Virus record (IMG/VR): IMGVR_UViG_3300015610_000614
Coordinates: 35,694-99,693 of that record
Direction: 5' to 3' (one strand)
Origin: a virus
Lineage: Duplodnaviria > Heunggongvirae > Uroviricota > Caudoviricetes
DNA length: 64,000 bases
Shown here: piece after piece, positions 978-50,443 of the stretch
Layout of the letters: each line of letters starts with the position of its first letter
Numbering within the stretch: position 1 is the first letter of the stretch
Program-made: the position numbers and the translations under genes
Notes under the pieces: model-generated
Database searches by the model: none
Seen by the model: the letters and a program-made list of their open reading frames with translations, nothing else
What the model was told of the DNA's origin: nothing

Positions 978-2291
978 ATGCTAACAATTAGTCGTGACAA
1001 TATTGATAGGTACAATATTACCGAATACTCGGTGGGCGAGCGTTTCATTAAGCTCCCCATCGCGAATTACCTAAAGCTGATGTGCCTAGAGCCCGGAAAG
1101 CCTAGCATATACGAACAGCTTAACAGACCACAAATTGCATTAATTAACGCAGTTAATTGCCCACAATATCGTTTCATCTGCGCAGCACTTTCACGACGCC
1201 TAGGTAAGACATTTATTGCAAATATTATCGGACAGCTAGTAACTCTAGTTCCTGGTAGTAACGTACTAATCATGTCGCCTAACTTCTCCCTGTCTTCGAT
1301 TAGTTTTGAGCTACAGAGAAAGTTTATTAATCACTTTGATATTGAGGTAGAAAAGAATAACCTTAAAGATAAGGTTATTGAGTTAAAGAACGGCTCAACC
1401 ATTCGTATGGGTTCTATTTCTACAGTAGATAGCTGCGTAGGGCGTTCTTATAATCTAATTATATTTGATGAAGCAGCTCTGGGTGCTGATGCTGAAGACG
1501 CTTTTAATATCGCTCTACGTCCTACTCTAGATAAACCAGGTAGTAAGGCTATCTTTATTTCTACCCCTCGTGGTAAGAATAACTGGTTCTCTACATTCTA
1601 TAATCGCGGGTTTAGTAAAGACTATCCTGAATGGATTTCTATTCATGCTGATTATACTGAAAATGAACGTATGAGCGAGGCCGACGTTGCAGAAGCTCGT
1701 CGTAGTATGACTGCTGCTCACTTCGAGCAGGAGTATATGGCATCGTTCACCTCATTCGAAGGTCAGATTTATAAATTTGACTCAAATAAGTGTGTTAAAC
1801 CATTCTACGATAATGGTGACAAATACGAGATATTTGCAGGTATTGACCCGGGGTATAGAGATCCTACTGCATTTATAATTATTGCTTACTTCCCTACAGC
1901 TGACTACTACCATGTAGTAGCTGAGTATCAGAAGTCAGAAGCTACTACAGATAAACATGCTGCTGTACTTAAGGAAATGAGTGCTAAGTGGAGCCTCGAT
2001 ACAATATTTATTGATTCTGCTGCTCCTCAATTTTCCGCTGACTTAGCTTATCTATACGATATAGCTACAATTAAAGCAAAGAAACAGGTATTAGAAGGCA
2101 TTGCTTTCTGCCAGACTTTAGTTGAACAAGGGAGATTAATAGTAGACCCCGATTGTACACATACTCTAGCTATGCTGGATCAGTACAAGTGGGATAATAG
2201 AGAAACACTAACTACGGAAAAGCCCGTACACGACGAATATAGCCACATGGCTGACGCTATGCGATATGCGCTGTACACATTCATACCTTAA
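978..2291 (+). CDS. terL: Terminase large subunit
   Basis: Walker A-like SRRLGKTF, Walker B IIFDEAA, nuclease motif GIDPGYRD, length 437 aa. Confidence 0.8.
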   Translation: MLTISRDNIDRYNITEYSVGERFIKLPIANYLKLMCLEPGKPSIYEQLNRPQIALINAVNCPQYRFICAALSRRLGKTFIANIIGQLVTLVPGSNVLIMSPNFSLSSISFELQRKFINHFDIEVEKNNLKDKVIELKNGSTIRMGSISTVDSCVGRSYNLIIFDEAALGADAEDAFNIALRPTLDKPGSKAIFISTPRGKNNWFSTFYNRGFSKDYPEWISIHADYTENERMSEADVAEARRSMTAAHFEQEYMASFTSFEGQIYKFDSNKCVKPFYDNGDKYEIFAGIDPGYRDPTAFIIIAYFPTADYYHVVAEYQKSEATTDKHAAVLKEMSAKWSLDTIFIDSAAPQFSADLAYLYDIATIKAKKQVLEGIAFCQTLVEQGRLIVDPDCTHTLAMLDQYKWDNRETLTTEKPVHDEYSHMADAMRYALYTFIP

Positions 2292-2923
2292 TGGCTACTG
2301 GAATTTATAAGCTTGATTTTTCTGACGGCACATACTACATCGGTCAAGCGGTGGATATAGATGTACGCTATAAACAACACTGTAAAGAGTTGTTAGATAA
2401 AAAGCACTCGGTAAAAATGAATGAAGCGTTTTGTAAAAATGCTCGTATTTTACCTAAGCTTTCTATCATGATAGAGTGTCACAGAGACTATTTAGATATA
2501 TTTGAATGTTTCTTCATTTATAAATATAATAGCGACAGACTTCTAAATACTACCATGCCAAAAGATATTCTAGGTGGATTGACTCAATCGGCCCTAGATA
2601 CTTTAGTAGAAAATAGGTTCAATTCAATTATAAATATAATCGATATTCTAGCTACTCAAGTAGGAAAAATCGAAGGACTAAAAATATCTTTAGAGGAAGC
2701 CGAAGACGAGATAGACCGTTTAGAGCATAAAAGATCTTTAGAGGAACTAGAGCGAGATACTAAGAAACGTATACGTAGATTACAGGACCAAGTAAAATTT
2801 CTCACCAATATTACGGAAGAGAAGGAAACTAGCCTAAGGGACCTTGAAAATCAATATACAGATGTTTCTGATGAATTACGCAAATTAAAATCCAAAGGAT
2901 TCTGGGCAAGAATCTTTGGTTAA
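2291..2923 (+). CDS. GIY-YIG homing endonuclease with a C-terminal coiled coil
   Basis: N-terminus GIYKLDFSDGTYYIGQAVDIDVRYKQH. ATG overlaps the terL stop (taATGg). Confidence 0.7.
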   Translation: MATGIYKLDFSDGTYYIGQAVDIDVRYKQHCKELLDKKHSVKMNEAFCKNARILPKLSIMIECHRDYLDIFECFFIYKYNSDRLLNTTMPKDILGGLTQSALDTLVENRFNSIINIIDILATQVGKIEGLKISLEEAEDEIDRLEHKRSLEELERDTKKRIRRLQDQVKFLTNITEEKETSLRDLENQYTDVSDELRKLKSKGFWARIFG

Positions 2924-2925
2924 TA

Positions 2926-2966
2926 AGAACCCGTATGGTTTATTTGACCATACGGGTTTTTTCTTT
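2926..2966 (+). terminator. Rho-independent terminator after the GIY-YIG gene
   Basis: aacccgtatggt / accatacgggtt stem followed by tttttt. Confidence 0.7.
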
Positions 2967-2987
2967 TGGGCTTTCAATTTTTGGGTG

Positions 2988-3016
2988 TTGACATGTATTA
3001 GGTCCCGTGCTATAAT
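2988..3016 (+). promoter_or_regulatory. Consensus sigma70 promoter (TTGACA, 17-bp spacer, TATAAT)
   Basis: ttgaca at 2988-2993, tataat at 3011-3016, 17-nt spacer. Confidence 0.7.
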
Positions 3017-3044
3017 AGCTACAATTATAAATTTGTACATAAAA

Positions 3045-3521
3045 ATGGCAAAGAATACAGGAATGAAGCGTATCCCTGTAAAATGGATACGTGATAGGGC
3101 TAAGAGCGCATATGAAAAGAAGGAAACTTGCCATATCTGCGGAACAAGCCAAGATCTAGAACTACATCATACTCATTCCATAACTCTACTTTTAGAAGAA
3201 TGGATTAAAGTAAAGGGCTACGATATTTCTACGGACGACGGGATAATTGCAGTAAGAGACGAATTTATTGCAGATCACCACTCTGAGTTATACGATCATG
3301 TATATACCCTGTGTAATAAACATCACGTAATGTTACATGCAGTGTATGGAAAAGCTCCAGCTTTAAATTCTGCTAATAAGCAGGTTAAATGGATTGAGAC
3401 TCAAAAAGCAAAGATTAGTGGCGGGCTAGTAGAGGTTCACAACATATTAGACCCTAAAGAAGCTAATAGATTAGTAAAACCTTGTAAAGACGCTTCGTTA
3501 TCTTTTGCGAAGTTCTTATAA
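3045..3521 (+). CDS. HNH homing endonuclease
   Basis: CHICGTSQDLELHHTHS ... CNKHHVMLH (HNH/Zn motifs). The ORF opens at 2916, but the terminator and promoter lie between 2916 and 3045, so I call the start at the ATG at 3045; the exact start is uncertain. Confidence 0.6.
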   Translation: MAKNTGMKRIPVKWIRDRAKSAYEKKETCHICGTSQDLELHHTHSITLLLEEWIKVKGYDISTDDGIIAVRDEFIADHHSELYDHVYTLCNKHHVMLHAVYGKAPALNSANKQVKWIETQKAKISGGLVEVHNILDPKEANRLVKPCKDASLSFAKFL

Positions 3522-4751: not shown

Positions 4752-6663
4752 AGTACTTCATTTAGAGAGTGCTTTCAAAGTCAAGGAGCTTCCCACTGCA
4801 GACGAGCAAATTGACTCTATCTACATTGAGGGGTACGCAAGTACCAACGATATAGATAGAGCAGGTGACGTAGTTCCAGCTTCTGTTTGGGAAGCCGGAA
4901 TCCAGAATTACCTAAAGAATCCAATCATACTAGCTCAACATGACCATGACGATCCTATTGGTAGAATGGTAGAGCATAAGATTGATCCTAAAGGTTTATG
5001 GATTAAGGCACGAATTTCGGCAGCTGCCGAAATATTTAATTTAATTAAAGACGGTGTAGTAACCGCCTTTAGTATCGGTTTCAGAGTACTCGATGCAGAA
5101 TATAACTCTGCTACTGAGCTATTTGTAATCAAAGAGTTGGAACTAGTAGAAATCTCAGTGGTTTCAGTTCCATGTAATCAAAACACTATTTTTACTCTTT
5201 CCAAATCTTTCGCAAACGATGCGGATTACAAGGAATTCAAAAAGCAGTTTGAACCAAAAGAAAATTCAGCTAAAGGGCTAGAAGCCACTAGCGGTTCGAA
5301 AGGCATTTCAAAACAAAAAGGATTTAATATGGATGAAACTCAAATCGCCGCTATGCTAGAAAAGGCTGCTAAGGAAGCTACCGAAAAGGCAATTAAGGCT
5401 GTAGAGGAAAAGGCTGCTAAGGAAGCTGCTGAAAAGGCTGCTAAGGAAGCCGAAGAAAAGGCTATCCAAGACCGCATCGAAAAAGCTGTAGCTGCTCGTA
5501 TTGAAGTAGGTACCAGCGGTGCTGAGCGTCTAGTTCAAGATCTAGCTAAGCGTCTAGAAGAAGAAACTGCCGGCATCAAGGATCTAAAGTCAGCCCTAGC
5601 TGAAAAGACCGAAGAAATTAAGCGTATTCAAGAATCGCGTATGGAATTTAGCGACCGTAAGAGCGCTGACGGTATTACCGATAAGGATAAAGAAACCGCT
5701 GTTCTACTAGGTCAACTAATGGGCAAGAGCCTACGTGACACTAAGTTCGGTGCTGGTCTACTAGAAAAAGCAGGCCCTCACGTTGCTAGCGCTACTTGGG
5801 AACTAGAAGTTTCTATGAATATGGAAGCGGAAGTTCGTCGTCGCCTAGTAGTAGCTCCTCTACTACGTAGTGTAGCGATGAAGACCAACGTTATGACTAT
5901 TCCTGTAAACCCTGAGGCTGGCTATGCTACTTGGGTACAGAATGCTCAGTTCGGTAGTACTGCTTCTGCTGGTGCAGCTCAAACTCACCAACTAAAAGAA
6001 ATTACGCTAAATGCGTACAAGGTTGCAACCCTTGAATATATGAACTTTGAAGAAGAGGAAGACTCTCTACTAGTTCTAATGCCGCTAGTTCGTGACGCTA
6101 TGGTTCGTCGTCTAGCTCTTGCTGTAGATAAGGCTTATCTACTAGGTGCTGGTTCTGGTGCTGATCCTGTTAAGGGCCTATCTATTTATGACGCAACTTC
6201 TGTTGTAACTCCTACCAACACTGGTGTTGCTACTGTTGCTAATATGCGCGCCCTACGTAAGGACTTAGGTGCATGGGGTCTAGAACCTTCTGAACTAGCT
6301 TACATCGTTTCTACTGAAGTTTACTATGACCTACTAGACGACACTCTATTCCAGAGTGTCGATAAGGTTGGTGATAAGGCTACCCTACTAACTGGTCAAG
6401 TTGGTTCTATCGGTAATAGCCCGGTTCTAGTATCTTCTGTATTCCCAACTAAGGCTGGCGGTGCAGCTACTGCTTCTACCAACATCGGTGCTATCGCGTT
6501 TGCTGCAGGTAACTTCCTAGCAGGTAACCAACGTGGTCTACGCTTCGATACTCAAGACCTAGTTGAAACTCAACGTAAGGCTCTAGTAGCTTCTCTACGT
6601 ACTGGTCTAGCGCAAGTTACTACCAACCTTGGTGGTGGCGTTTCTACCCTACGTTGGAGCTAA
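4738..6663 (+). CDS. Fused prohead protease (HK97/S78-like), (EKAAKEA)n linker and HK97-fold major capsid protein
   Basis: N-terminus DSIYIEGYASTNDIDRAGDVV...ILAQHDHDDPIGRMVEH...AFSIGFRV is an S78 protease signature. Then the low-complexity repeat EKAAKEATEKAIKAVEEKAAKEAAEKAAKEAEEKA. The C-terminal ~350 aa are MCP-like. RBS aaggag lies 5 nt before the ATG at 4738; the ORF opens at 4687. Confidence 0.65.
   Translation: MDKYKVLHLESAFKVKELPTADEQIDSIYIEGYASTNDIDRAGDVVPASVWEAGIQNYLKNPIILAQHDHDDPIGRMVEHKIDPKGLWIKARISAAAEIFNLIKDGVVTAFSIGFRVLDAEYNSATELFVIKELELVEISVVSVPCNQNTIFTLSKSFANDADYKEFKKQFEPKENSAKGLEATSGSKGISKQKGFNMDETQIAAMLEKAAKEATEKAIKAVEEKAAKEAAEKAAKEAEEKAIQDRIEKAVAARIEVGTSGAERLVQDLAKRLEEETAGIKDLKSALAEKTEEIKRIQESRMEFSDRKSADGITDKDKETAVLLGQLMGKSLRDTKFGAGLLEKAGPHVASATWELEVSMNMEAEVRRRLVVAPLLRSVAMKTNVMTIPVNPEAGYATWVQNAQFGSTASAGAAQTHQLKEITLNAYKVATLEYMNFEEEEDSLLVLMPLVRDAMVRRLALAVDKAYLLGAGSGADPVKGLSIYDATSVVTPTNTGVATVANMRALRKDLGAWGLEPSELAYIVSTEVYYDLLDDTLFQSVDKVGDKATLLTGQVGSIGNSPVLVSSVFPTKAGGAATASTNIGAIAFAAGNFLAGNQRGLRFDTQDLVETQRKALVASLRTGLAQVTTNLGGGVSTLRWS
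5359..5462 (+). repeat. In-frame tandem nucleotide repeat (gaaaaggctgctaaggaagc)x3 encoding the EKAAKEA linker
   Basis: Direct repeats are visible at 5359-5378, 5408-5430 and 5431-5455. Confidence 0.7.
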
Positions 6664-6670
6664 TCTAACA

Positions 6671-6698
6671 CTGATGGGACTTCGGTCCCATCTTTTAT
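6671..6698 (+). terminator. Rho-independent terminator after the capsid gene
   Basis: gatgggac ttcg gtcccatc tttt; a second weaker hairpin (taagcat...gtgctta) follows. Confidence 0.75.
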
Positions 6699-6740
6699 AA
6701 GCATTTATTTAAGTGCTTATAAAAGATATAAGGAACAAAT

Positions 6741-7310
6741 ATGGGAAATAGTCTAGTATCTAGATCGCAATATAAAACATATGCAGGAATATCGAGTTCT
6801 AATCAAGATGCTAAGATTGATTCTTTAATTCCTATTGTTAGCGCTTTTGTAAAATCATACTGTCGTAGAACTTTCGTAGACTACTACGATACAGAGAAAA
6901 CTGAATACTTTAGAGGCGGAGACGGCTTCTACCCAAAAGAACTACCAATAGTAGAAGTAACTTCTTTAGAATACTCACTTGACTACGGTAAAACATTCTC
7001 TCCAATGGCGGAGTTTACCGATTACGTTATAGACCAGGAAACTAGCCAGATAGTGCCTGCATCTTCTATCTCATTTACGGAAAGAGTAAACGGGTATAGG
7101 TTAACCTATAAGGGTGGATACGAAAGCATTCCAGAAGATTTAATGGTGGCTGTTTTTGACATGATTACTTATTATATCAAAAATGACTCTGCTATTCACT
7201 CCCCTAAAGTACCTGGCAGTAATACAGTACAGATAGAATATATTTCTAGTAGCTCTTTACCAGCTAATATTAAGAGAGTACTGGATATTTATAAAGATAA
7301 CTGGATATGA
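6741..7310 (+). CDS. Head-tail connector (gp6/gp15-like)
   Basis: 189 aa, immediately after the MCP gene, with a typical N-terminus (ISSSNQDAKIDSLIPIVSAFVKSYCRRTF). Confidence 0.5.
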   Translation: MGNSLVSRSQYKTYAGISSSNQDAKIDSLIPIVSAFVKSYCRRTFVDYYDTEKTEYFRGGDGFYPKELPIVEVTSLEYSLDYGKTFSPMAEFTDYVIDQETSQIVPASSISFTERVNGYRLTYKGGYESIPEDLMVAVFDMITYYIKNDSAIHSPKVPGSNTVQIEYISSSSLPANIKRVLDIYKDNWI

Positions 7311-8800
7311 GCTTCTATACAGCAGATTGGGTTAGGAAATACGTAAAGCAAGAGCACGAGGCTCTTCAAAAACATATTTCAGGTAAAGATAAAGATTTCA
7401 GAAGCTTTATAGACGCGTCACTTCCTTTCAGCCTGTACTTAGATATAGGTGAAATACGTGATAGAATACTTAAGCCTAACACTGCCTTTATAGCAGAACT
7501 AGCTGCCTTACTAAAACTAGACGATCCTAATATTATTATATCTATATTGGATAAAGCCTATGTAGACTTAATTAATAGTTATGCCGATAACCCTAGATTT
7601 AAAAAGATAGACAGTAATGAACTTAAGTCTATTATGGACGAGTTCAATAATGCAGTAGTATCCGGCGCTAATATACAGAGTACTATTACCAAATTCTTTT
7701 CTAATACAATAGTAGTTTCAAATCTATGTGTTAGAAACGTAAGAACTTTCTTGATATTCCCAAAGTTTAATACAGTATCGAATGATTTTGGTAAAAGATT
7801 AAAAGACTTAATTGATTTATCGCCTCTATCTGATTACATCGACGACGAGTTAGGCGACAGTCCTAGAAACATATTTAAGAACTTCTTAAATAAAAACTTT
7901 GGTAAATTACAGAACTTAGGGCATGCGGAAGTAGACGTTATATCTACAACCTCTAAAGAAGTTAAAAGAGGCCTAGTATCTCCTAGACTATTACAGGCAT
8001 TAGTATCGTTACCAAAAGAAACTAAAGTAGAGCCTATAGTTAAAAGATTCTCCAAAGAAACAGGGCAAGCTAATACTAGAATTATTGTGCGAAAAAAATT
8101 CGCAGATTCTAAGATGGTACTAGAGGTTCTTGTTGAATCAGGGTTCATGATAGGAATACCTGAATCCCAGGCCGATAACCTTACTAAGGCACCTTTAGAA
8201 AAGCAATTTAATATTGGGGCTAATCTAACAGCTGCAATTAAAGCGAACCCCAATATTATATTAGATTTAGAAACATCTAAATCTATAAAGCAATACGCAG
8301 CAGAGGCTGTATTAGAGAGCATAAAAACAGGTAGAGTTAAACCCTATACCTCAACTGCAGTAATCGATACTAGTACTAAAATTACTAGAACCAAAACTGT
8401 AGTAACTGCTCCTAAAACAAAAGCTCCGTCGTCTTCTAGAGCACCTAAATTACCTAAACCTCCTTCAGCGTCAGTCGATTTGTCCTCGCTGCTAGTACTA
8501 ATTCAGCATAATATTGCTGCACAAGTAGAAAAGAATATGGGTACTGGAAATAGACATGATGTTCTAAATTATAGAACTGGTAGGTTTGCTAACTCTGTGA
8601 AAATAGAGAAACTTACTCAATCTAAAGAAGGTATGATCTCTGCTTTTTATTCGTATATGAAGTATCCGTACGCTACGTTCTCAGAGGGCGGTCGTCAACA
8701 GTATCCGCGTTCGCGTGATCCTAAGACGCTAATATCTAAATCAATTAAAGAAATCGCTGCAGAAAAGGTAGCAGCAAGAATGCGAGCTGTCCTAGTATGA
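7307..8800 (+). CDS. Hypothetical virion (neck/decoration?) protein
   Basis: 497 aa ORF, translationally coupled within the head-tail joining region. Confidence 0.35.
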   Translation: MSFYTADWVRKYVKQEHEALQKHISGKDKDFRSFIDASLPFSLYLDIGEIRDRILKPNTAFIAELAALLKLDDPNIIISILDKAYVDLINSYADNPRFKKIDSNELKSIMDEFNNAVVSGANIQSTITKFFSNTIVVSNLCVRNVRTFLIFPKFNTVSNDFGKRLKDLIDLSPLSDYIDDELGDSPRNIFKNFLNKNFGKLQNLGHAEVDVISTTSKEVKRGLVSPRLLQALVSLPKETKVEPIVKRFSKETGQANTRIIVRKKFADSKMVLEVLVESGFMIGIPESQADNLTKAPLEKQFNIGANLTAAIKANPNIILDLETSKSIKQYAAEAVLESIKTGRVKPYTSTAVIDTSTKITRTKTVVTAPKTKAPSSSRAPKLPKPPSASVDLSSLLVLIQHNIAAQVEKNMGTGNRHDVLNYRTGRFANSVKIEKLTQSKEGMISAFYSYMKYPYATFSEGGRQQYPRSRDPKTLISKSIKEIAAEKVAARMRAVLV

Positions 8801-32397: not shown

Positions 32398-33090
32398 ATG
32401 GGAACAAACACCGGGAAAAAAGCTAGAAAAGCTGCCGCTACTGCTCCTGCCCAAGAGTACCAAGTAGCTAAGTTTAAGGAAATTCATCCTCTAAACTATA
32501 TTCAAGAAACGTATATGGATGCCATCGAAGATAATAGTATTATCTTTGGTATTGGTAGTGCAGGTACTGGTAAGACCTTTATCTCTGCTACCTATGCAGC
32601 CCAGGAACTTTACTATAAACGAACCCGAAAGGTTATAGTAACAAGACCTAATGTAGAATCTGCTAGATCACTCGGTCACCTACCTGGTGAGCTGGAAGAG
32701 AAATACGCTCCATATCTAGAGCCTTTCGAGGCTGTATTCAGAAAATCTCTCGGTGTTGGATTTTATGAATACTGTTTAAAAGAAAAAATGATCGAACCTA
32801 AACCGCTAGGATTTATGCGAGGTGTTACGTTTGAGGATTGCGTCGTATTAGTAGACGAAGCTCAAAACATTACTAAATCCGAATTTAAGATGCTACTAAG
32901 CCGAATTGGTAGAAACTGCAAGGTAATCCTATCTGGAGATCCTAAGCAAGTAGATATTAAAGATTCCGGCCTTGATGATGCAGTCAGACGCCTTGAGCAT
33001 ATTGACGATGTAGAAGTAGTACGCTTCTTAGATTCAGATATTGTACGTAGCAAACTTTGTAAGGAAATCATCCTAGCATACAATGATTAA
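32398..33090 (+). CDS. phoH: PhoH-like ATPase
   Basis: Walker A GSAGTGKTF, Walker B VLVDEAQN. Confidence 0.8.
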   Translation: MGTNTGKKARKAAATAPAQEYQVAKFKEIHPLNYIQETYMDAIEDNSIIFGIGSAGTGKTFISATYAAQELYYKRTRKVIVTRPNVESARSLGHLPGELEEKYAPYLEPFEAVFRKSLGVGFYEYCLKEKMIEPKPLGFMRGVTFEDCVVLVDEAQNITKSEFKMLLSRIGRNCKVILSGDPKQVDIKDSGLDDAVRRLEHIDDVEVVRFLDSDIVRSKLCKEIILAYND

Positions 33091-33098
33091 GGAGTTGT

Positions 33099-33404
33099 AT
33101 GTCATTACCAAATTTCTCTCTACAGGAAACAGGAGTTTCTGTTCCAGCAGGCACAGCCAGTGCTGCCACTAGTATTCCGCTATTGGGAGGTCAAGTACCT
33201 GAGGATATTTTAATCTATAACCCAGACCCCAGTAACGTAGCTTACGTACGTACAGGTAAATCTACTGTTACCGCAAATACTAATTGCATGCCTATTTTAC
33301 CAGGTGAAAAAAGTACATGGGGCGTACGAGGAGCTACGCATATAGCTACTATTCGTGCTGCAGGTACTACTGCTCTACTTGTTTTTGCAGGTAGAGGTAA
33401 CTAA
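33099..33404 (+). CDS. Hypothetical small beta-rich protein
   Basis: 101 aa, last + strand gene before the convergent terminator. Confidence 0.3.
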   Translation: MSLPNFSLQETGVSVPAGTASAATSIPLLGGQVPEDILIYNPDPSNVAYVRTGKSTVTANTNCMPILPGEKSTWGVRGATHIATIRAAGTTALLVFAGRGN

Positions 33405-33467
33405 AATGGGTACCAAGCCTGCAAATAGTAAGAACCGTAACGGAAGAGGAAAAGGTTCAAACAAATG

Positions 33468-33506
33468 AAAAAAGCCCGCTGGCGTAATAACCAGCGGGCT
33501 TTTTCT
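33468..33506. terminator. Bidirectional rho-independent terminator between convergent late and early modules
   Basis: aaaagcccgctgg cgtaataa ccagcgggcttttt, with A-run and T-run on both sides. Confidence 0.8.
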
Positions 33507-33518
33507 TTATTCAATAAA

Positions 33519-34079
33519 TCACTTTATAGGACAGGAACCAGTAGCGCAAGCTTCTTGCTCCATTTCATCGAAACCGTTTACGCCGGTTAGATCAACAGGC
33601 TTTAACTTCGATACGTATTCACGGAATACTTCTTCCGTTACAACTTCTTGTGGTAGGTATAGATAACCTAGATCCTTTGCAGTCTTAGAAGGATCTGCAC
33701 GATATAGGAAACTTACGCCAACATAGCAATCCCAGTTTAGTAATAGCCAATCAATAATTGACGGTACTTCTTCCGGGGAGTAGCTAATAGTGATAGAGGT
33801 ATTTTGTTGCGTCCAGTTAGTCTGTAGCAGCTTATAACGTTCTAATTGCTCTAGAGCTGATTCTAGATTAACTTCCTTACCATTTGCATCCTTGTGGAAA
33901 GGAACATCCGACCACTCTACAGGGAATGTAACTAGTACGCCAGTGTTATCTGTAGGATGATTAAATACGTTATAACCAGCTTCACGTAGAATTGGTACTA
34001 CCGGATCGTGGATACTAAATTGTACATTATTGAAAATATACTTACCAAGAGGCTTATGACCACCTTCGGTAGTATCCAT
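33519..34079 (-). CDS. Ribonucleotide reductase large subunit, C-terminal exon
   Basis: Ends MEQEACATGSCPIK, like the class I NrdA tail CESGACKI. The frame stays open upstream of the ATG to 34193, so exon 2 may begin anywhere between 34080 and 34193. Confidence 0.5.
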   Translation of the reverse strand: MDTTEGGHKPLGKYIFNNVQFSIHDPVVPILREAGYNVFNHPTDNTGVLVTFPVEWSDVPFHKDANGKEVNLESALEQLERYKLLQTNWTQQNTSITISYSPEEVPSIIDWLLLNWDCYVGVSFLYRADPSKTAKDLGYLYLPQEVVTEEVFREYVSKLKPVDLTGVNGFDEMEQEACATGSCPIK

Positions 34080-34099
34080 AATTTTGGAAAGAGTTCCAG

Positions 34100-34432
34100 A
34101 GGGTTTGCATTTATGTTCAATATTACTCGTTAGGTAATACCCGTTTAATAAGTCTATAGTAGTGTGTTTTACTAATGCCGTATTTATCTTTCGCTAATTT
34201 AAATGAACCAGCAGAAAATACATATTATTTTACTTATTAAACAGCTCTATATTACTATAGAGATCGGACTATATCATCACACTATTAAGTGTGTTCTGCG
34301 CTTCCATACACTTGTATGTACTCTATAATAGATAGTCTCTGAACCTTCCGCATATGCGGCTTGGCTGCTGATTGTCCTTAACTTAATAGTAGGAGGTTCC
34401 AGCAATTCACAGAATTTTATTTGCGCCAATTA
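34100..34432 (-). ncRNA. Group I self-splicing intron interrupting the RNR gene (approximate boundaries)
   Basis: Read on the minus strand it contains the canonical group I core elements in order: P AAUUGCUGGAACC (34395-34407), Q AAUCAGCAGCC (34362-34376), R GUUCAGAGACUAUC (34331-34345), S GAUAUAGUCCGAUC (34259-34275). There is no ORF and the blocks are homologous to the polA intron. Confidence 0.7.
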
Positions 34433-35827
34433 CTTAACGCAAGTCACGTTTTTAGGGTGTGGTAGTCCTAGTTCGTCAGCCATACCAATAGCAGCGCCAG
34501 TAGCAGTACGCTTCATGCGCTCATAGTCATACCCTGTAAGGTCAGGACGCTTAGCTACACCAGTAATACCTACACCGCATAGACGTAGGAAATAGTTATT
34601 AATATGCCACGCTTCTTGTAGGATACCATCCTTAAGATTTACACAAGTTTGACGGTAGTTAGCTCGGGCAGCTAGACGCAGAGCGTCAAATAGCCCGGCC
34701 ATATTACCCTTGAACTTACCTAGATCAACTTCCGTAAGATTACAGAAAGACTTATTACCTAGTAGAATCTCTACGCAAGGATTACACCCCTTGAACCACG
34801 GTGCTCGACGTAGCGCTTCTTCTGCGTTAATAAATCCAGGCTCAGAACCCCCGGCTTCTTCCATTAGCTTGAAAATATCTTCAAGTTCTTTGCGAAGAGG
34901 CTTAGTACGGAAAACTAGACTATTATTAGATTGGGTACGATGAGCATTATTATGCATCCACCAATCCTTTTTAGCTACTGCGAATTCTTGCCATTCAGGC
35001 TCGCCATATTCAAATAGAGCAATTTCTGCACTACGACGGCTCGACAAGATGGTACCTAGCCAGTTAACAATATCTAGAATATCCATGCGAGTTAGTAGAG
35101 AATCAGCCCTACCGTTTAGGATATTTGCAATTGCTACGTATGCAACGCTAATGGCCTCATCACCAGAGCTAATCCAGCCATAGCCCTTTAGACGCTCACC
35201 CGCAGGACGCAGTTGACTGAAGTCCAGTACTAGCTTTTTAGCAGGATACTTACCAGCCATTAGCTTACCGATCGACTTAGCCCACGCTTCAGCAGAATCG
35301 CCTACACTAATAGTCCATACGCCAGTTTCAGGATCGAAGGTCTCTACGTTATTTTCGTTACCGCCCTTTTCAGTACGAGTAGAACGAATTACTTCAATAT
35401 TCTTGATTGATTTAGAGAAACCACTAAGAGTACCTACGATGGGGCGGAAACCTACGCCGCAGCCCTGTAGTAGTAGCCAAAGAATATCTACAATATCGTA
35501 AACAGTTTCGGCATTTGTGAAACTGCAATTAAACTGAGAAGCTTCGCGAGTTTTAGCAACTGAGGTACCGCCAAGCCAAAGAGTGCGACCGCTCATAGAG
35601 ATTTTACGATCTAGCATTAGACGTTCTAGATCGTACAGCTCTGCATATTCAGTGTCTAGTAGTTCGCGACCTACTGCACGCTCCCACAGCCATTGCTGGT
35701 GATTGATAACGCGCTCAACAGTGGCTTCCCATGTTTCAAATACTGTACCCTGATCGTTCAATGGACGATTATAGGTACGACGAGTAATAACTTGTGCACG
35801 AGTAGATGGTTTATATTCGATTGTCAT
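34430..35827 (-). CDS. Ribonucleotide reductase large subunit, N-terminal exon
   Basis: GCNPCVEIL matches the RNR active-site N-x-C-x-E motif (E. coli SNLCLEI); an upstream Cys sits in FNCSFTN. Confidence 0.5.
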   Translation of the reverse strand: MTIEYKPSTRAQVITRRTYNRPLNDQGTVFETWEATVERVINHQQWLWERAVGRELLDTEYAELYDLERLMLDRKISMSGRTLWLGGTSVAKTREASQFNCSFTNAETVYDIVDILWLLLQGCGVGFRPIVGTLSGFSKSIKNIEVIRSTRTEKGGNENNVETFDPETGVWTISVGDSAEAWAKSIGKLMAGKYPAKKLVLDFSQLRPAGERLKGYGWISSGDEAISVAYVAIANILNGRADSLLTRMDILDIVNWLGTILSSRRSAEIALFEYGEPEWQEFAVAKKDWWMHNNAHRTQSNNSLVFRTKPLRKELEDIFKLMEEAGGSEPGFINAEEALRRAPWFKGCNPCVEILLGNKSFCNLTEVDLGKFKGNMAGLFDALRLAARANYRQTCVNLKDGILQEAWHINNYFLRLCGVGITGVAKRPDLTGYDYERMKRTATGAAIGMADELGLPHPKNVTCVK

Positions 35828-35836
35828 TTATTTCCT

Positions 35837-36286
35837 TTAATTAGTTCCAGTACTACCAAACCCACCAGTCGAGCGTACTGAAGATTTTTCCCACATTTCA
35901 TCATCCATAGCCGATACGTCATCTACTTTAGGAAGTGCAATAGGTACTATTAATAACTGGGCAAATCGTTCGCCCATATCAATTACTGCCGGTTCTTTAC
36001 CAAAGTTGTATAGAACCACTTTTAAATTACCACGATAGCCTGAGTCAATTATACCTAGGCTATTGGCTAAAATTAAGTTCTTTTTCTGTAAAGAAGATCT
36101 AGCTGCTAATAGTCCAACATAACCATCTGGAATAGCAACCTGTACTCCGGTATCTAACATAACTTTAGTATCTGGTTCAATTACTACATGTGCGTCTGAT
36201 TTAAGATCCAAACCAGCATCGTTCGGATTCTTTCGCTCCGGTAGTAATGACCAACTACTGGCTCTAGCTTGCAAGTGTGCTAACAT
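35837..36286 (-). CDS. dut: dUTPase
   Basis: AGLDLKS, GIIDSGYRGNL, FAQLLIV, RSTGGFGSTG (dUTPase motifs I-V). Confidence 0.9.
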   Translation of the reverse strand: MLAHLQARASSWSLLPERKNPNDAGLDLKSDAHVVIEPDTKVMLDTGVQVAIPDGYVGLLAARSSLQKKNLILANSLGIIDSGYRGNLKVVLYNFGKEPAVIDMGERFAQLLIVPIALPKVDDVSAMDDEMWEKSSVRSTGGFGSTGTN

Positions 36287-37130
36287 AGCTTGTTACCTTG
36301 TCATCAAAATCAATAATGTTTTCAGCACCGATAGCTTCGTCGCAAAATGCTAATAGATCCATTAGCATGTAATTACGATAGATAGCATCCGATCCGAAAT
36401 TGTTAGTATATTCAATATATTTATATTTGCCTGGAATAGGAATAGCATCGGCTACATCCATTGCAGTGCCAAATTGCTTTAATAGCTTAAGTGCGGTAGC
36501 GGGTCCAACTTTATTGATTCCAGGTACGTTATCTCCAGAATCGCCTTGTAGACATTTAATGCTAATATGCTGCTCTTGACTATAGTCATAAAAATCGTGC
36601 CAATTTTCTAGATTAATGATTTTTTGTGTAACATAAGAAAATCTAGAGATACCATCGTCTAGAATTAATAGGTCCCAATCCTTGTCGGAACTTACTAGCA
36701 TTAATTCTTCAATATTGAACCGCTTTCTAGATTTTACCAACTTAGCAGCTAAATCATCTGCTTCTACGCCGTCATACTGTAATACTAGAAACTCTGGGCA
36801 ACTGTTCTCAATCTCGGCAATAGTACGTCGAAATTCAGCAATAAATTCCAGAAAACGCTTTTCTTCTTCTGGAGTTTGTTGTTCATATTTTTCGGTACGG
36901 TTTGCTTTATACTCAGGATAGATATTCTTACGATATGTAGAACCTCTAGAGTCTACAGTAATAAAAACCATGCCACATTCAAATGAACGTCGCAAGCTTT
37001 TAACTGTAGCAATATAGTCTTCTACGAAATTTTGTTGTTTGCTATGATACCAACGGAAAGCTAAGTTTAGTGCATCCACTACCATTGCTTTTCTTGGTTT
37101 ATAATTAGCTGGTTTAAATGCTTTTGACAT
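36264..37130 (-). CDS. 5'-3' exonuclease / flap endonuclease (T5 D15-like)
   Basis: LQGDSGDNVPGINKVGPATALKLL (H3TH), PGKYKYIEY, and the same N-terminal architecture as T5 D15. Confidence 0.85.
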   Translation of the reverse strand: MSKAFKPANYKPRKAMVVDALNLAFRWYHSKQQNFVEDYIATVKSLRRSFECGMVFITVDSRGSTYRKNIYPEYKANRTEKYEQQTPEEEKRFLEFIAEFRRTIAEIENSCPEFLVLQYDGVEADDLAAKLVKSRKRFNIEELMLVSSDKDWDLLILDDGISRFSYVTQKIINLENWHDFYDYSQEQHISIKCLQGDSGDNVPGINKVGPATALKLLKQFGTAMDVADAIPIPGKYKYIEYTNNFGSDAIYRNYMLMDLLAFCDEAIGAENIIDFDDKVTSYVSTLAS

Positions 37131-48584: not shown

Positions 48585-48918
48585 CGGTTAACTCCCTAGT
48601 TTTCACTAGAGACCGGACTATATCTTCAACCTCTTGTAATGAATAAGCAAATAATACGTTTTTAGTGCGTATTTTTGCAATTCAGTAAGGCTGCCCCCCG
48701 TTTCGAGCTCATTACTCATGGCCCTACTCCTTTCGGATAGTCTCTGAACGTTCCACCTAAGGTATTAGGTGGCTTCGCTGCTGATTGCCCAATTTCTACA
48801 GTTTTCAAACCATCGCATTCACTATTACTAGTCGTGCTGTGGTCTGTAGAACTTAAGGGGTTTCCAGCAATTAGAGGGGTGTTTATCTCAGTATTACTAC
48901 TAAGAGGGACTTGAAATC
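48585..48918 (-). ncRNA. Group I self-splicing intron in polA
   Basis: Minus-strand P AAUUGCUGGAAACCC (48858-48872), Q AAUCAGCAGCGAAGCC (48771-48790), R GUUCAGAGACUAUC (48736-48749), S AAGAUAUAGUCCGGUC (48608-48624). It inserts right after the motif A Asp (..SIVSQD|) and contains no ORF. Confidence 0.75.
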
Positions 48919-50443
48919 AATCCTGGCTTACAATGCTATATCCAGCTGGAGCGACCAAACATCCTTTAATGATTGGGTCATCTCGCGGAATCTGTTGAGC
49001 ATTAAACTTTCCGCTACTAGATAAGCGCCCAGATGTGGTGAAAATAAGATTGAAATTTGTACGAATTCTTCCATCGTTGTCGATCTCCGGTAAAATCTTA
49101 CTAACATACGAGCTGCTAATTTTGGTAAGAGCACGTAGTTCTAGAATAGCCTTAGGTAGCGGATGCTGATCTGCTAGCTCTTTTAGAACTTCTGCGTCAG
49201 TAGATACCGCACCTGCCTTAGTAAGCTTACCAGTAGGAGTAAGTCCTACGTAGTCAAATAGTACTTTTCGTAGTTGAACTACTGAGCCAGGATTGAAGAT
49301 TTTACCCTCGTCCTTCTCATATTGCTTAACTTCGGGGAAGCTAAATACCTTTTCCTTGGCTGCTGAAATCTGTGTAAACAGATAAGTACCGGCAGCTTTC
49401 ATACGGTCTACACCGATAGGAATACCTACTTCTTCCATATCCATTAGGAACAGAGTACCGCGAATCAGAATATTTCGGTACACCCACTCCAGCTTAGGAT
49501 TATTGAGCACTAGCGGACGGAACTTACGATATAGCTCTAGAGTTACTGCCGTGTCGATAGCAGCATATCGACCAATAACATCCAATGGGATTAGATCGTA
49601 AGTGAAATCTTCCTGAAGAATACCGTGTTTAGCACAATATTCTTTCTTAAAGTCATCTAGTTCTGAATCGTAGTCACCAAAATCGGTGTACTTCAGTGCT
49701 AGCTGCTTTAGACCGTGCGAATCTGTCTCATCTAGAACGTAGTGCATAACCATAGTGTCATGCACGTTATCACGATTGAACCTAAAGCCGAAGTGATATG
49801 CAAGCATCTTATAATCGAACTTCATATTATGAAATACGACTGTATACTTATCAAAAATCTTCTGCATTAGTTCAATATGCTCAGAATCAAGGATATCTGA
49901 TACTAGGTATCTGCCTTGACGTAGCATATGCGACATAGAAATACCTAGTACGTACCCGTCGCGCGGATAAAGTGCAGTAGTTTCAGTATCCACTGCAACT
50001 TCGGTAACGTCACTATTATATACTTCTAATAGATATGCGTATGCTTCTTCCGCATTTGCAATCCACTTATAGTCACCGTTTACTGCTGCATTAGTAATCT
50101 TGCCAGCTAGAACGCCATGAATTTTATTCAGAGCTCGTTCAAAATCAGGCCTCATTTCAGGCTTAAATACTAGCATTGCAGGATTAGAAATACACATATA
50201 CTTGTTGTCAACAAGTAAGCCAGCATGACTAGTTACAGACGTAATTTTTGCGTAATGTTTTGCAGCTTCGGATCCTACTAGAATTACGTAATCATAAAGA
50301 TCCGGGTCAAAATCTAGAGTTACATCTTTCTTTAGTAGCTTTGGAATAGGTACTTCACTCATGTGAAGTAGATCAAACTCAAAATTGAAATGATCTGAAT
50401 AGTTGTTTCGGCTAGGTGCCTTGTCAATTACCGCAATTCTCAT
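48917..50443 (-). CDS. polA: DNA polymerase I family (PolA), exon 1 (3'-5' exonuclease and N-terminal polymerase domain up to motif A)
   Basis: VAVDTETTALYP (Exo I), HNMKFDYKML (Exo II), and ends ...GYSIVSQD (E. coli VIVSAD of motif A). Confidence 0.8.
   Translation of the reverse strand: MRIAVIDKAPSRNNYSDHFNFEFDLLHMSEVPIPKLLKKDVTLDFDPDLYDYVILVGSEAAKHYAKITSVTSHAGLLVDNKYMCISNPAMLVFKPEMRPDFERALNKIHGVLAGKITNAAVNGDYKWIANAEEAYAYLLEVYNSDVTEVAVDTETTALYPRDGYVLGISMSHMLRQGRYLVSDILDSEHIELMQKIFDKYTVVFHNMKFDYKMLAYHFGFRFNRDNVHDTMVMHYVLDETDSHGLKQLALKYTDFGDYDSELDDFKKEYCAKHGILQEDFTYDLIPLDVIGRYAAIDTAVTLELYRKFRPLVLNNPKLEWVYRNILIRGTLFLMDMEEVGIPIGVDRMKAAGTYLFTQISAAKEKVFSFPEVKQYEKDEGKIFNPGSVVQLRKVLFDYVGLTPTGKLTKAGAVSTDAEVLKELADQHPLPKAILELRALTKISSSYVSKILPEIDNDGRIRTNFNLIFTTSGRLSSSGKFNAQQIPRDDPIIKGCLVAPAGYSIVSQD

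Follow-up and report, generated by a model that had tools for sequence, protein, structure and literature searches.

We conclude with high confidence that, in this uncultured phage of about 100 kb, a phage IA-type group I intron of 329 nt splits a gene for a monomeric class II ribonucleotide reductase, and that this intron is the deletion derivative of one that carried an endonuclease gene. The gene lies on the minus strand of the window, by which we mean the whole stretch of 64,000 nucleotides that was analysed. The parts of the locus, with the evidence used for each of them, are as follows.

34437..35827, minus strand: exon 1 of the class II RTPR-type reductase, codons 1-463 and the GU of Val464 (ORF list, Pfam RNR_Alpha, PDB 1l1l, tblastn)
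34108..34436, minus strand: group I intron, 329 nt (RF00028 score, in-frame in silico splice, gap-free colinearity, intronless allele L004)
33519..34107, minus strand: exon 2, which opens with the third base of Val464 and runs through KPSGTLSK...CATGSCPIK to the stop codon (ORF list, splice, 1l1l, homologue alignment)
33468..33505, minus strand (scores on the plus strand too): intrinsic terminator-like hairpin directly after exon 2, a strong site

The Rfam family RF00028 (group I intron, gathering score 50 bits) matches positions 34446..34245 of the minus strand with 102.9 bits (E = 1.4e-25, over the full length of the model, positions 1-253). A scan of the whole window with Rfam gives exactly two matches above the gathering score, both of them to RF00028 and both on the minus strand, the second one in the polymerase gene discussed below. 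An earlier note on this DNA had proposed a group I intron in a ribonucleotide reductase gene and a related one in polA, and both introns are recovered by this search, the first in the gene of a catalytic subunit. The element that it had placed at 34100-34432 is therefore real, but its boundaries were slightly off, the intron proper running from 34436 to 34108.

The 5′ end of the intron is the U following the U·G pair of P1 and its 3′ end is G34108 (omega G). When cuts are made in silico after U34437 and after G34108, the two ORFs are joined in frame to an open frame of 1980 nt which encodes 659 aa (about 650 had been anticipated), with ...NVTCV/KPSGTLSK... at the protein junction, and this is the one junction that combines a U·G pair at the 5′ site with a G at the end of the intron. 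The predicted ligated RNA, ...ACUUGCGU-CAAACC..., restores the conserved ...TCVKPSGTLS... loop; in its longer form it reads ...AACGUGACUUGCGU-CAAACCCUCUGG..., with GUC at the junction (GUU if the 5′ site lies one base over). The predicted junction is found letter for letter in the intronless allele L004 (ACTTGCGTCAAACCT), whose uninterrupted target around the insertion point is ACTTGCGTCAAACC. A 5′ site after U34436 was rejected because the intron would then end in C; the protein is identical with either site. A 3′ site near 34245, where the Rfam match ends directly after P9, was also rejected, as the downstream frame has stops until 34193 and the homologues contain no extra residues at the junction. 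Splicing itself, the exact 5′ site (U34437 or U34436) and the 3′ site are predictions from the sequence.

The exons contain what the earlier note had read in them. The N-terminal ORF (34430..35827, minus strand, 465 aa) carries the reductase active-site motif as KGCNPCVEILLG, and its annotated end lies at 34430 because two codons and a TAA are read from the intron. The C-terminal ORF (33519..34079, minus strand, 186 aa) has the C-terminus EACATGSCPIK, and its frame is open up to 34193, the TAG stop being at 34196-34194. Both exons are intact, without frameshift or stop, and the intron is positioned immediately 5′ of the conserved KPSGT loop, at codons 464/465.

With regard to the type of reductase, the Pfam domain RNR_Alpha is found in exon 1 above its cut-off (32.9 bits), while the B12-type insertion domain (23.5 versus 27 bits) and the barrel domain (22.1 versus 23.9 bits) score just under theirs. 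The enzyme is therefore identified through its PDB match and its annotated homologues. The RTPR of L. leichmannii (PDB 1l1l, E = 1.6e-31) is the sole solved relative at E <= 0.001 and is matched in three stretches, among them the catalytic NPC.E region and the C-terminal tail (CATGSCPIK versus CEGGACPIK) with its Cys pair ...CxxxxCPIK. The homologues in GenBank phages are 56-72% identical and annotated as RTPR (class II, adenosylcobalamin-dependent), and every named homologue belongs to class II. Over its whole length, and with no gap where the exons meet, the spliced protein can be aligned with uninterrupted phage enzymes (PQ867852, 68%; roseophage SIO1, 61%), so that the two halves are joined in frame and colinear with single enzymes and do not hit unrelated proteins. 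By these comparisons the host gene is a monomeric class II, B12-dependent reductase gene (RTPR/NrdJ type) and not nrdA. A tail like that of NrdA (CESGACKI), as suggested before, is not what we find, since the tail aligns with the CEGGACPIK of RTPR; membership in class I is not supported, the homologues being class II.

The best 80 IMG/VR relatives (79-82% identity) are all continuous at the junction and none of the 80 has the intron, which is rare among close relatives. These relatives also bear on the cysteine of ..TCV/KPSGT, which is replaced in three more distant homologues, SIO1, PQ867852 and MW202615 (TTV): co-conversion of this residue with the intron was considered and rejected, because all 80 intronless close relatives have TC(V/I). 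The exon-1 protein is identical on six contigs on record. One contig of 99.7 kb (L211, ENA ERZ17987007) equals the window over a locus of 2601 nt, intron included, and a further one (L212) ends inside the intron. The occurrence of the identical locus on the separate contig L211 argues against an assembly artefact. The window itself did not turn up in IMG/VR, in the JGI metagenome set or among the GTDB genomes. A megablast of the locus against GenBank phages gave no match, and the phage has no close sequenced relative.

The reductase gene of the closest GenBank relative (L001, MW202615.1, 2995-6072; 71.6% identity) is a single ORF of 1025 aa in which an in-frame insert of about 366 aa separates NP from C in the active-site motif NPCxE. 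The insert has the look of an intein, which would be another kind of selfish element in this gene.

The neighbourhood of the gene in the window (32398..36286) is a nucleotide-metabolism and replication block, for which the domains in the record of the source contig give the following genes.

32398..33090, plus strand: PhoH-like ATPase
35837..36286, minus strand: dUTPase
36264..37130, minus strand: 5′-3′ exonuclease (FEN-type)

The RNA structure of the intron was assembled from the Rfam alignment, a scripted pairing check and a fold of the tail, and compared with the orthologous introns L122 and L206, which are introduced below.

34421..34442, minus strand: P1, exon UUGCGU and intron U (34442..34436) with the guide GGCGCAA (34427..34421), from the scripted pairing check
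34245..34418, minus strand: ribozyme core P3-P9, from the Rfam alignment, helices verified in three orthologues
34141..34244, minus strand: P9.1, a 13-bp stem of 34244..34232 with 34153..34141, from the tail fold, stem kept in L122 and L206
34120..34140, minus strand: P9.2, hairpin GUAUUAC-CUAACGA-GUAAUAU, from pair changes in three orthologues
34108..34119, minus strand: 3′-terminal strand UGAACAUAAAUG, which ends in omega G, conserved in L122 and L206

The guide lies 9 nt downstream, both candidate U's of the 5′ site face a G, and the P1 pairing is identical in L122 and L206. An in-frame TAA (34432..34430), 4 nt into the intron, precedes the guide. In the core, P3, P4, P5, P6/P6a, J6/7-P7, P7.1, P7.2, P3′, P8, P7′ and P9 follow each other in this order, and P2 is absent. 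Two hairpins lie between P7 and P3′ (P7.1, 34332..34322; P7.2, 34318..34305) and assign the intron to subgroup IA; in L122 and L206 both carry compensatory changes. Two further candidates were read from the sequence and are too short for statistics, namely a P10 of 3 bp between UUG 34429..34427 and the first exon-2 bases CAA, and a P9.0 of 2 bp between the AU before omega G and an AU of J7/9. On the minus strand the 3′-terminal UGAAC (34119..34115) is complementary to GUUCA of J6/7 (34342..34338), which could be an alternative pairing for folding or 3′-site activation, or a coincidence.

Taking the steps from what is known of the group I family, splicing would proceed as follows. One transcript would span both exons, and ribosomes on the unspliced RNA would halt at the TAA that lies 4 nt into the intron and would not reach the guide. 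The guide GGCGCAA would pair with the exon UUGCGU to form P1, and free guanosine would attack after U34437. P9.0, P10 and the P9.1/P9.2 domain would then carry the remote 3′ splice site into the core, where G34108 would swap into the G-binding site and the exons would be ligated.

The remoteness of the 3′ splice site leads to the history of the intron. The Rfam match stops at P9 (34245), and the 3′ splice site follows 137 nt further. Among the 350 nt between the two ORFs we found nothing but trivial ORFs of 40-50 aa, and in this sense the earlier description of the intron as ORF-less holds; but its 3′ third is the deletion remnant of a GIY-YIG gene and not plain spacer. This becomes apparent from orthologous introns, which were sought by a pattern search of IMG/VR and of metagenomes. 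The same intron occurs at the same codon (464/465) in three lineages, L122 (which equals the contig of L210), L209 and L206, with 99-102.5 bits in Rfam, and in tblastn the residues 8-464 of exon 1 match all three. The RNA parts of L209 are identical to those of L122. The metagenome scan added only L209 and the unrelated L208, and an exact-pattern scan of the GTDB genomes for P1 and guide gave no further orthologue.

In L122/L209 and in L206 the intervening sequence is about 797 nt long and contains an ORF of 182 aa in the loop of P9.1, the stem after P9. The product has a GIY-YIG domain (PF01541, cut-off 22.6 bits) with 32.3 bits in L122 and 27.5 bits in L206 (E-values 1.3e-7 and 3.9e-6) and a weak NUMOD3 motif too. 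The same loop in the window copy contains a deletion remnant, of which two pieces can be aligned.

34213..34223, minus strand: 5′ remnant of the homing endonuclease gene, ATG TAT TTT CT, from pairwise alignments to L122 and L206
34123..34212, minus strand: 3′ remnant of the homing endonuclease gene, from alignments, 80% over 105 nt to L206

These alignments are pairwise ones that allow a long gap, as a full-length MAFFT alignment misplaced the tail of the window intron against the 5′ end of the endonuclease gene. The window keeps the upstream strand of the stem and, mutually out of frame, the ATG with three codons and the last ~24 codons, and about 460 nt are missing. The 5′ remnant now reads MYFLLVHLN followed by a stop, because the deletion shifts the frame. 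The 3′ remnant encodes AGSFKLAKDKYGISKTHYYRLIKR.. as compared to AGSFKAANTIYGISKTHYYRLIKRA and a stop in L206, with 19 of 25 residues identical. We infer that the window intron is an internal-deletion derivative and its ORF-less state secondary, the direction of the change being read from the remnants. In the proposed course of events an ancestral intron would have contained the gene of a 182-aa GIY-YIG homing endonuclease in its P9.1 loop, from which about 460 nt were later deleted, leaving an intron that would still splice but would have lost autonomous homing, since with this part of the gene gone it could not home alone. The 3′ remnant overlaps the 3′ strand of P9.1 as well as P9.2. The last endonuclease codons contain the 3′ strand of P9.1 and adjoin P9.2, and this double role is the likely reason why the piece survived the deletion.

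The opposite direction, in which the intron was originally ORF-less, the window copy is ancestral and a GIY-YIG gene came into the loop of P9.1 afterwards, in the lineages of L122 and L206, has some general backing, as ORF-less introns are thought to be invaded by free-standing endonucleases (PMC2988022), and with only four orthologous copies known the polarity is not fixed by a tree. However, late invasion does not explain why the ATG TAT of the window aligns with the start of the endonuclease, nor why about 24 C-terminal endonuclease codons, in a frame that differs from that of the start, are kept (with the 19 of 25 residues shared with L206). In addition, this C-terminal segment is part of full-length GIY-YIG enzymes in unrelated phages: residues 1-180 of the 182 of the L206 endonuclease align with endonucleases such as that of Enterococcus phage VD13. 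Because the L206 ORF aligns nearly whole with the enzymes of unrelated phages, the retained codons are genuine endonuclease sequence, and we regard a late invasion as quite unlikely.

If the window copy is a deletion derivative, the question arises whether the decay has gone beyond the endonuclease gene, so that splicing is lost and the reductase is a pseudogene or made as two fragments. Such a decay would fit the state of the endonuclease gene, which is already degenerate, the distance of 137 nt between core and 3′ splice site, and the shortness of P10. Against it stand the exons, which have neither frameshift nor stop, and an RNA that retains every core helix, the G-binding P7, the U·G pair and the terminal G and that reaches the same Rfam score as the endonuclease-bearing orthologues. 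Furthermore, the substitutions between the orthologues are compensatory. P1, P3, P4, P5, P6, P6a, P7, P7.1, P7.2, P8, P9, P9.1 and P9.2 all pair in the window, L122 and L206. In the alignment of these three distinct sequences, from which the endonuclease interior was removed, 98.1% of the cells are paired, versus 29-45% when the partner is slid by 1-3 columns, and seven pairs are changed on both sides, versus none in the slid controls. P7.1 and P7.2, which MAFFT had put out of register, were left out of this count and checked per sequence. The double-sided changes are found in P3, P6a, P8 and, with four of its seven pairs, P9.2; one position of P8 shows three different Watson-Crick pairs across the orthologues. 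The tail alone folds better than all of 200 shuffled sequences (z = -3.65). Three sequences make a small sample, but they agree in all helices, and the compensatory changes in P3, P6a, P7.1, P7.2, P8 and P9.2 indicate that the RNA fold is under selection, and a loss of splicing seems very unlikely to us.

A truly split gene without RNA splicing, whose polypeptides of 465 and 186 aa associate after translation, could refer to the in-frame ATG at 34079 in exon 2 and to intronless split phage reductases (NrdA-a/NrdA-b of Aeh1 and the two-ORF nrdJ of Thermus phage phiYS40; PMC3653736), but is hardly credible here, since the spacer is a full, high-scoring group I ribozyme with a guide that matches the exon end, the ATG-initiated product of exon 2 would be without the conserved KPSGTLSKI segment, and the break interrupts a conserved loop at the very point at which in-frame splicing would make it whole again. 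A search for a terminator-like site between the exons found none.

The L206 reductase gene shows a second intervening sequence of about 890 nt (~6455-7340, minus strand) at ..WLLLQG/CGVGF... It contains a LAGLIDADG_2 ORF of 245 aa (Pfam E = 1.7e-25) and stays below the gathering score in Rfam, while the model built from the reductase intron gives a weak match of 34.8 bits at 6464-6552.

The second intron of the window interrupts a family A DNA polymerase gene.

48585..48919, minus strand: polA group I intron, 335 nt, junction ..SQD/LTTAEV.., from Rfam

RF00028 matches it at 48929..48594 (minus strand) with 104.2 bits, and the spliced polymerase aligns unbroken, in residues 2-568, with the polymerase of contig L204. 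The earlier note had listed four nearly identical blocks in the two introns. All of them exist, but three of the four pairs of coordinates were 2-7 bases off.

34331 and 48736: GATAGTCTCTGAAC, both positions as given earlier
34364 and 48777: GCTGCTGATTG, given earlier as 34362 and 48771
34399 and 48864: CCAGCAATT, given earlier as 34395 and 48858
34266 and 48615: GGACTATATC, given earlier as 34259 and 48608

In the window the shared 14-, 11- and 10-mers are unique to these two sites, and the 9-mer is also found at three unrelated sites. A pattern made from two of the shared blocks matches more than 119 viral contigs, and 177 GenBank phage records (Staphylococcus, Escherichia, Salmonella, Vibrio, Bacillus and others) hold cores which are 68-75% similar; none of the GenBank matches covers at least 80% of the reductase intron. 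When the two introns of the window are compared directly by BLAST, the best segment has 35.6 bits over 55 nt, compared to 58-97 bits for other contigs. With a covariance model of the core of the reductase intron, the polA intron scores 84.1 bits and takes rank 60 of 162 matches. In core identity over the model columns it has 68.8% and rank 28 of 150, the best non-orthologues reaching about 72%. A recent duplication was rejected on these grounds, that is the weak direct BLAST and the place of the polA intron in the middle of both tables. The two introns do belong to one large family and are paralogous only in this loose sense: neither is the nearest relative of the other, and the reductase intron is matched better by dozens of introns on unrelated contigs. 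What the two share in these blocks is the generic core of an intron family that is very common in phages.

The polA intron resembles the reductase intron in family and core blocks, in the IA-like hairpins between P7 and P3′, in its location in a gene of replication or nucleotide metabolism and in its strand. Unlike the reductase intron it has P2 and large extensions of P5 and P8, its 3′ splice site lies 9 nt after P9 and it has no endonuclease remnant. The polymerase gene of L204 (66% identical to the window polymerase) contains an insertion of 1243 nt (2013-3256) at 568/569, the intron of the window polA being at 508/509. This insertion holds a P7′-P9 segment, GATATAGTCCGATCTCTATAG...TATAGAG, in common with the reductase intron, and Rfam finds nothing above the gathering score in it. 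Many of the IMG/VR contigs with the core pattern (L160, L107, L168, L138, L129 and others) have three to six group I matches within a few kb, so that two introns per phage are modest by comparison.

The guide of the reductase intron was also found elsewhere. The metagenome contig L208 (Ga0194138_10018185) has at 995-1880 a group I intron of 886 nt (Rfam 52.8 bits) which has its guide (UUGGCGCAA) and its 10-nt target, CUUGCGU^CAA, in common with the reductase intron of the window. Its host is a different reductase type (..APAGTIGILA/STTTGIEP..), in which it is located about ten residues downstream of the equivalent motif, and it carries an HNH-like ORF in the P5 region, a loop other than the one used in the window lineage. 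The identity of guide and target could be due to chance, to functional constraint or to ectopic transposition. In the last case the intron lineage might have moved between non-homologous reductase sites by RNA-guided reverse splicing and not by endonuclease homing, which we consider unlikely.

With the window intron, the gene of the monomeric class II reductase joins the phage reductase genes colonised by group I introns. Reductase genes are the phage genes which are most frequently interrupted (PMC3653736). The only split nrdJ genes listed in a 2013 survey of phage reductases are those of P60 (overlapping ORFs) and phiYS40 (12-nt gap), neither of them given as a group I intron (PMC3653736). 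Our literature searches brought up no earlier case of a class II reductase gene with a group I intron, which, with our incomplete coverage, is not proof of absence. One and the same site is seen here at three stages of the homing cycle, empty, with an intron plus endonuclease, and with an intron whose endonuclease is deleted. There is also a practical side, because annotation pipelines would call this essential gene two unrelated ORFs (the exon-2 product has no domain match in the record of the source contig), and recognition of the intron restores one enzyme of 659 aa. The current understanding is left unchanged by this intron, which is a further, clear-cut case of a phenomenon known from textbooks on phages. 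Intron ORFs in general are located in peripheral loops and at times reach into structural sequence (PMC3984707).

Among the known systems the intron in nrdB of T4 is the closest parallel. It too is found in a phage reductase gene, and its endonuclease (I-TevIII) is inactivated by a large internal deletion while the splicing ribozyme is kept. Nor is it known to have a P2. The differences are that its host gene encodes the small subunit of a class Ia enzyme and its endonuclease is of the HNH type, as compared to a class II monomeric catalytic subunit and a GIY-YIG endonuclease in the window; in addition the position of the ORF within the intron is another one and there is no sequence orthology. 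For I-TevIII the intact counterpart is known, since phage RB3 keeps the gene which in T4 is inactive through a large deletion (PMC2988022).

The nrdD (sunY) intron of T4 is similar in other respects, being a phage IA-type intron in a reductase gene with a GIY-YIG endonuclease. In the sunY intron the ORF lies 3′ of the catalytic core, which makes for a remote 3′ splice site that needs 3′-terminal pairings. The enzyme encoded there is I-TevII (PMC2988022). In contrast to the window intron, that of nrdD resides in a class III gene, has an intact endonuclease and another insertion site, and shows no orthology beyond the family core. The introns in nrdE of Staphylococcus phage Twort and in bnrdE and bnrdF of Bacillus phage SPbeta differ as well, as they interrupt class Ib genes of Gram-positive phages at other insertion sites; Staphylococcus phage records are among the 177 that hold cores 68-75% similar.
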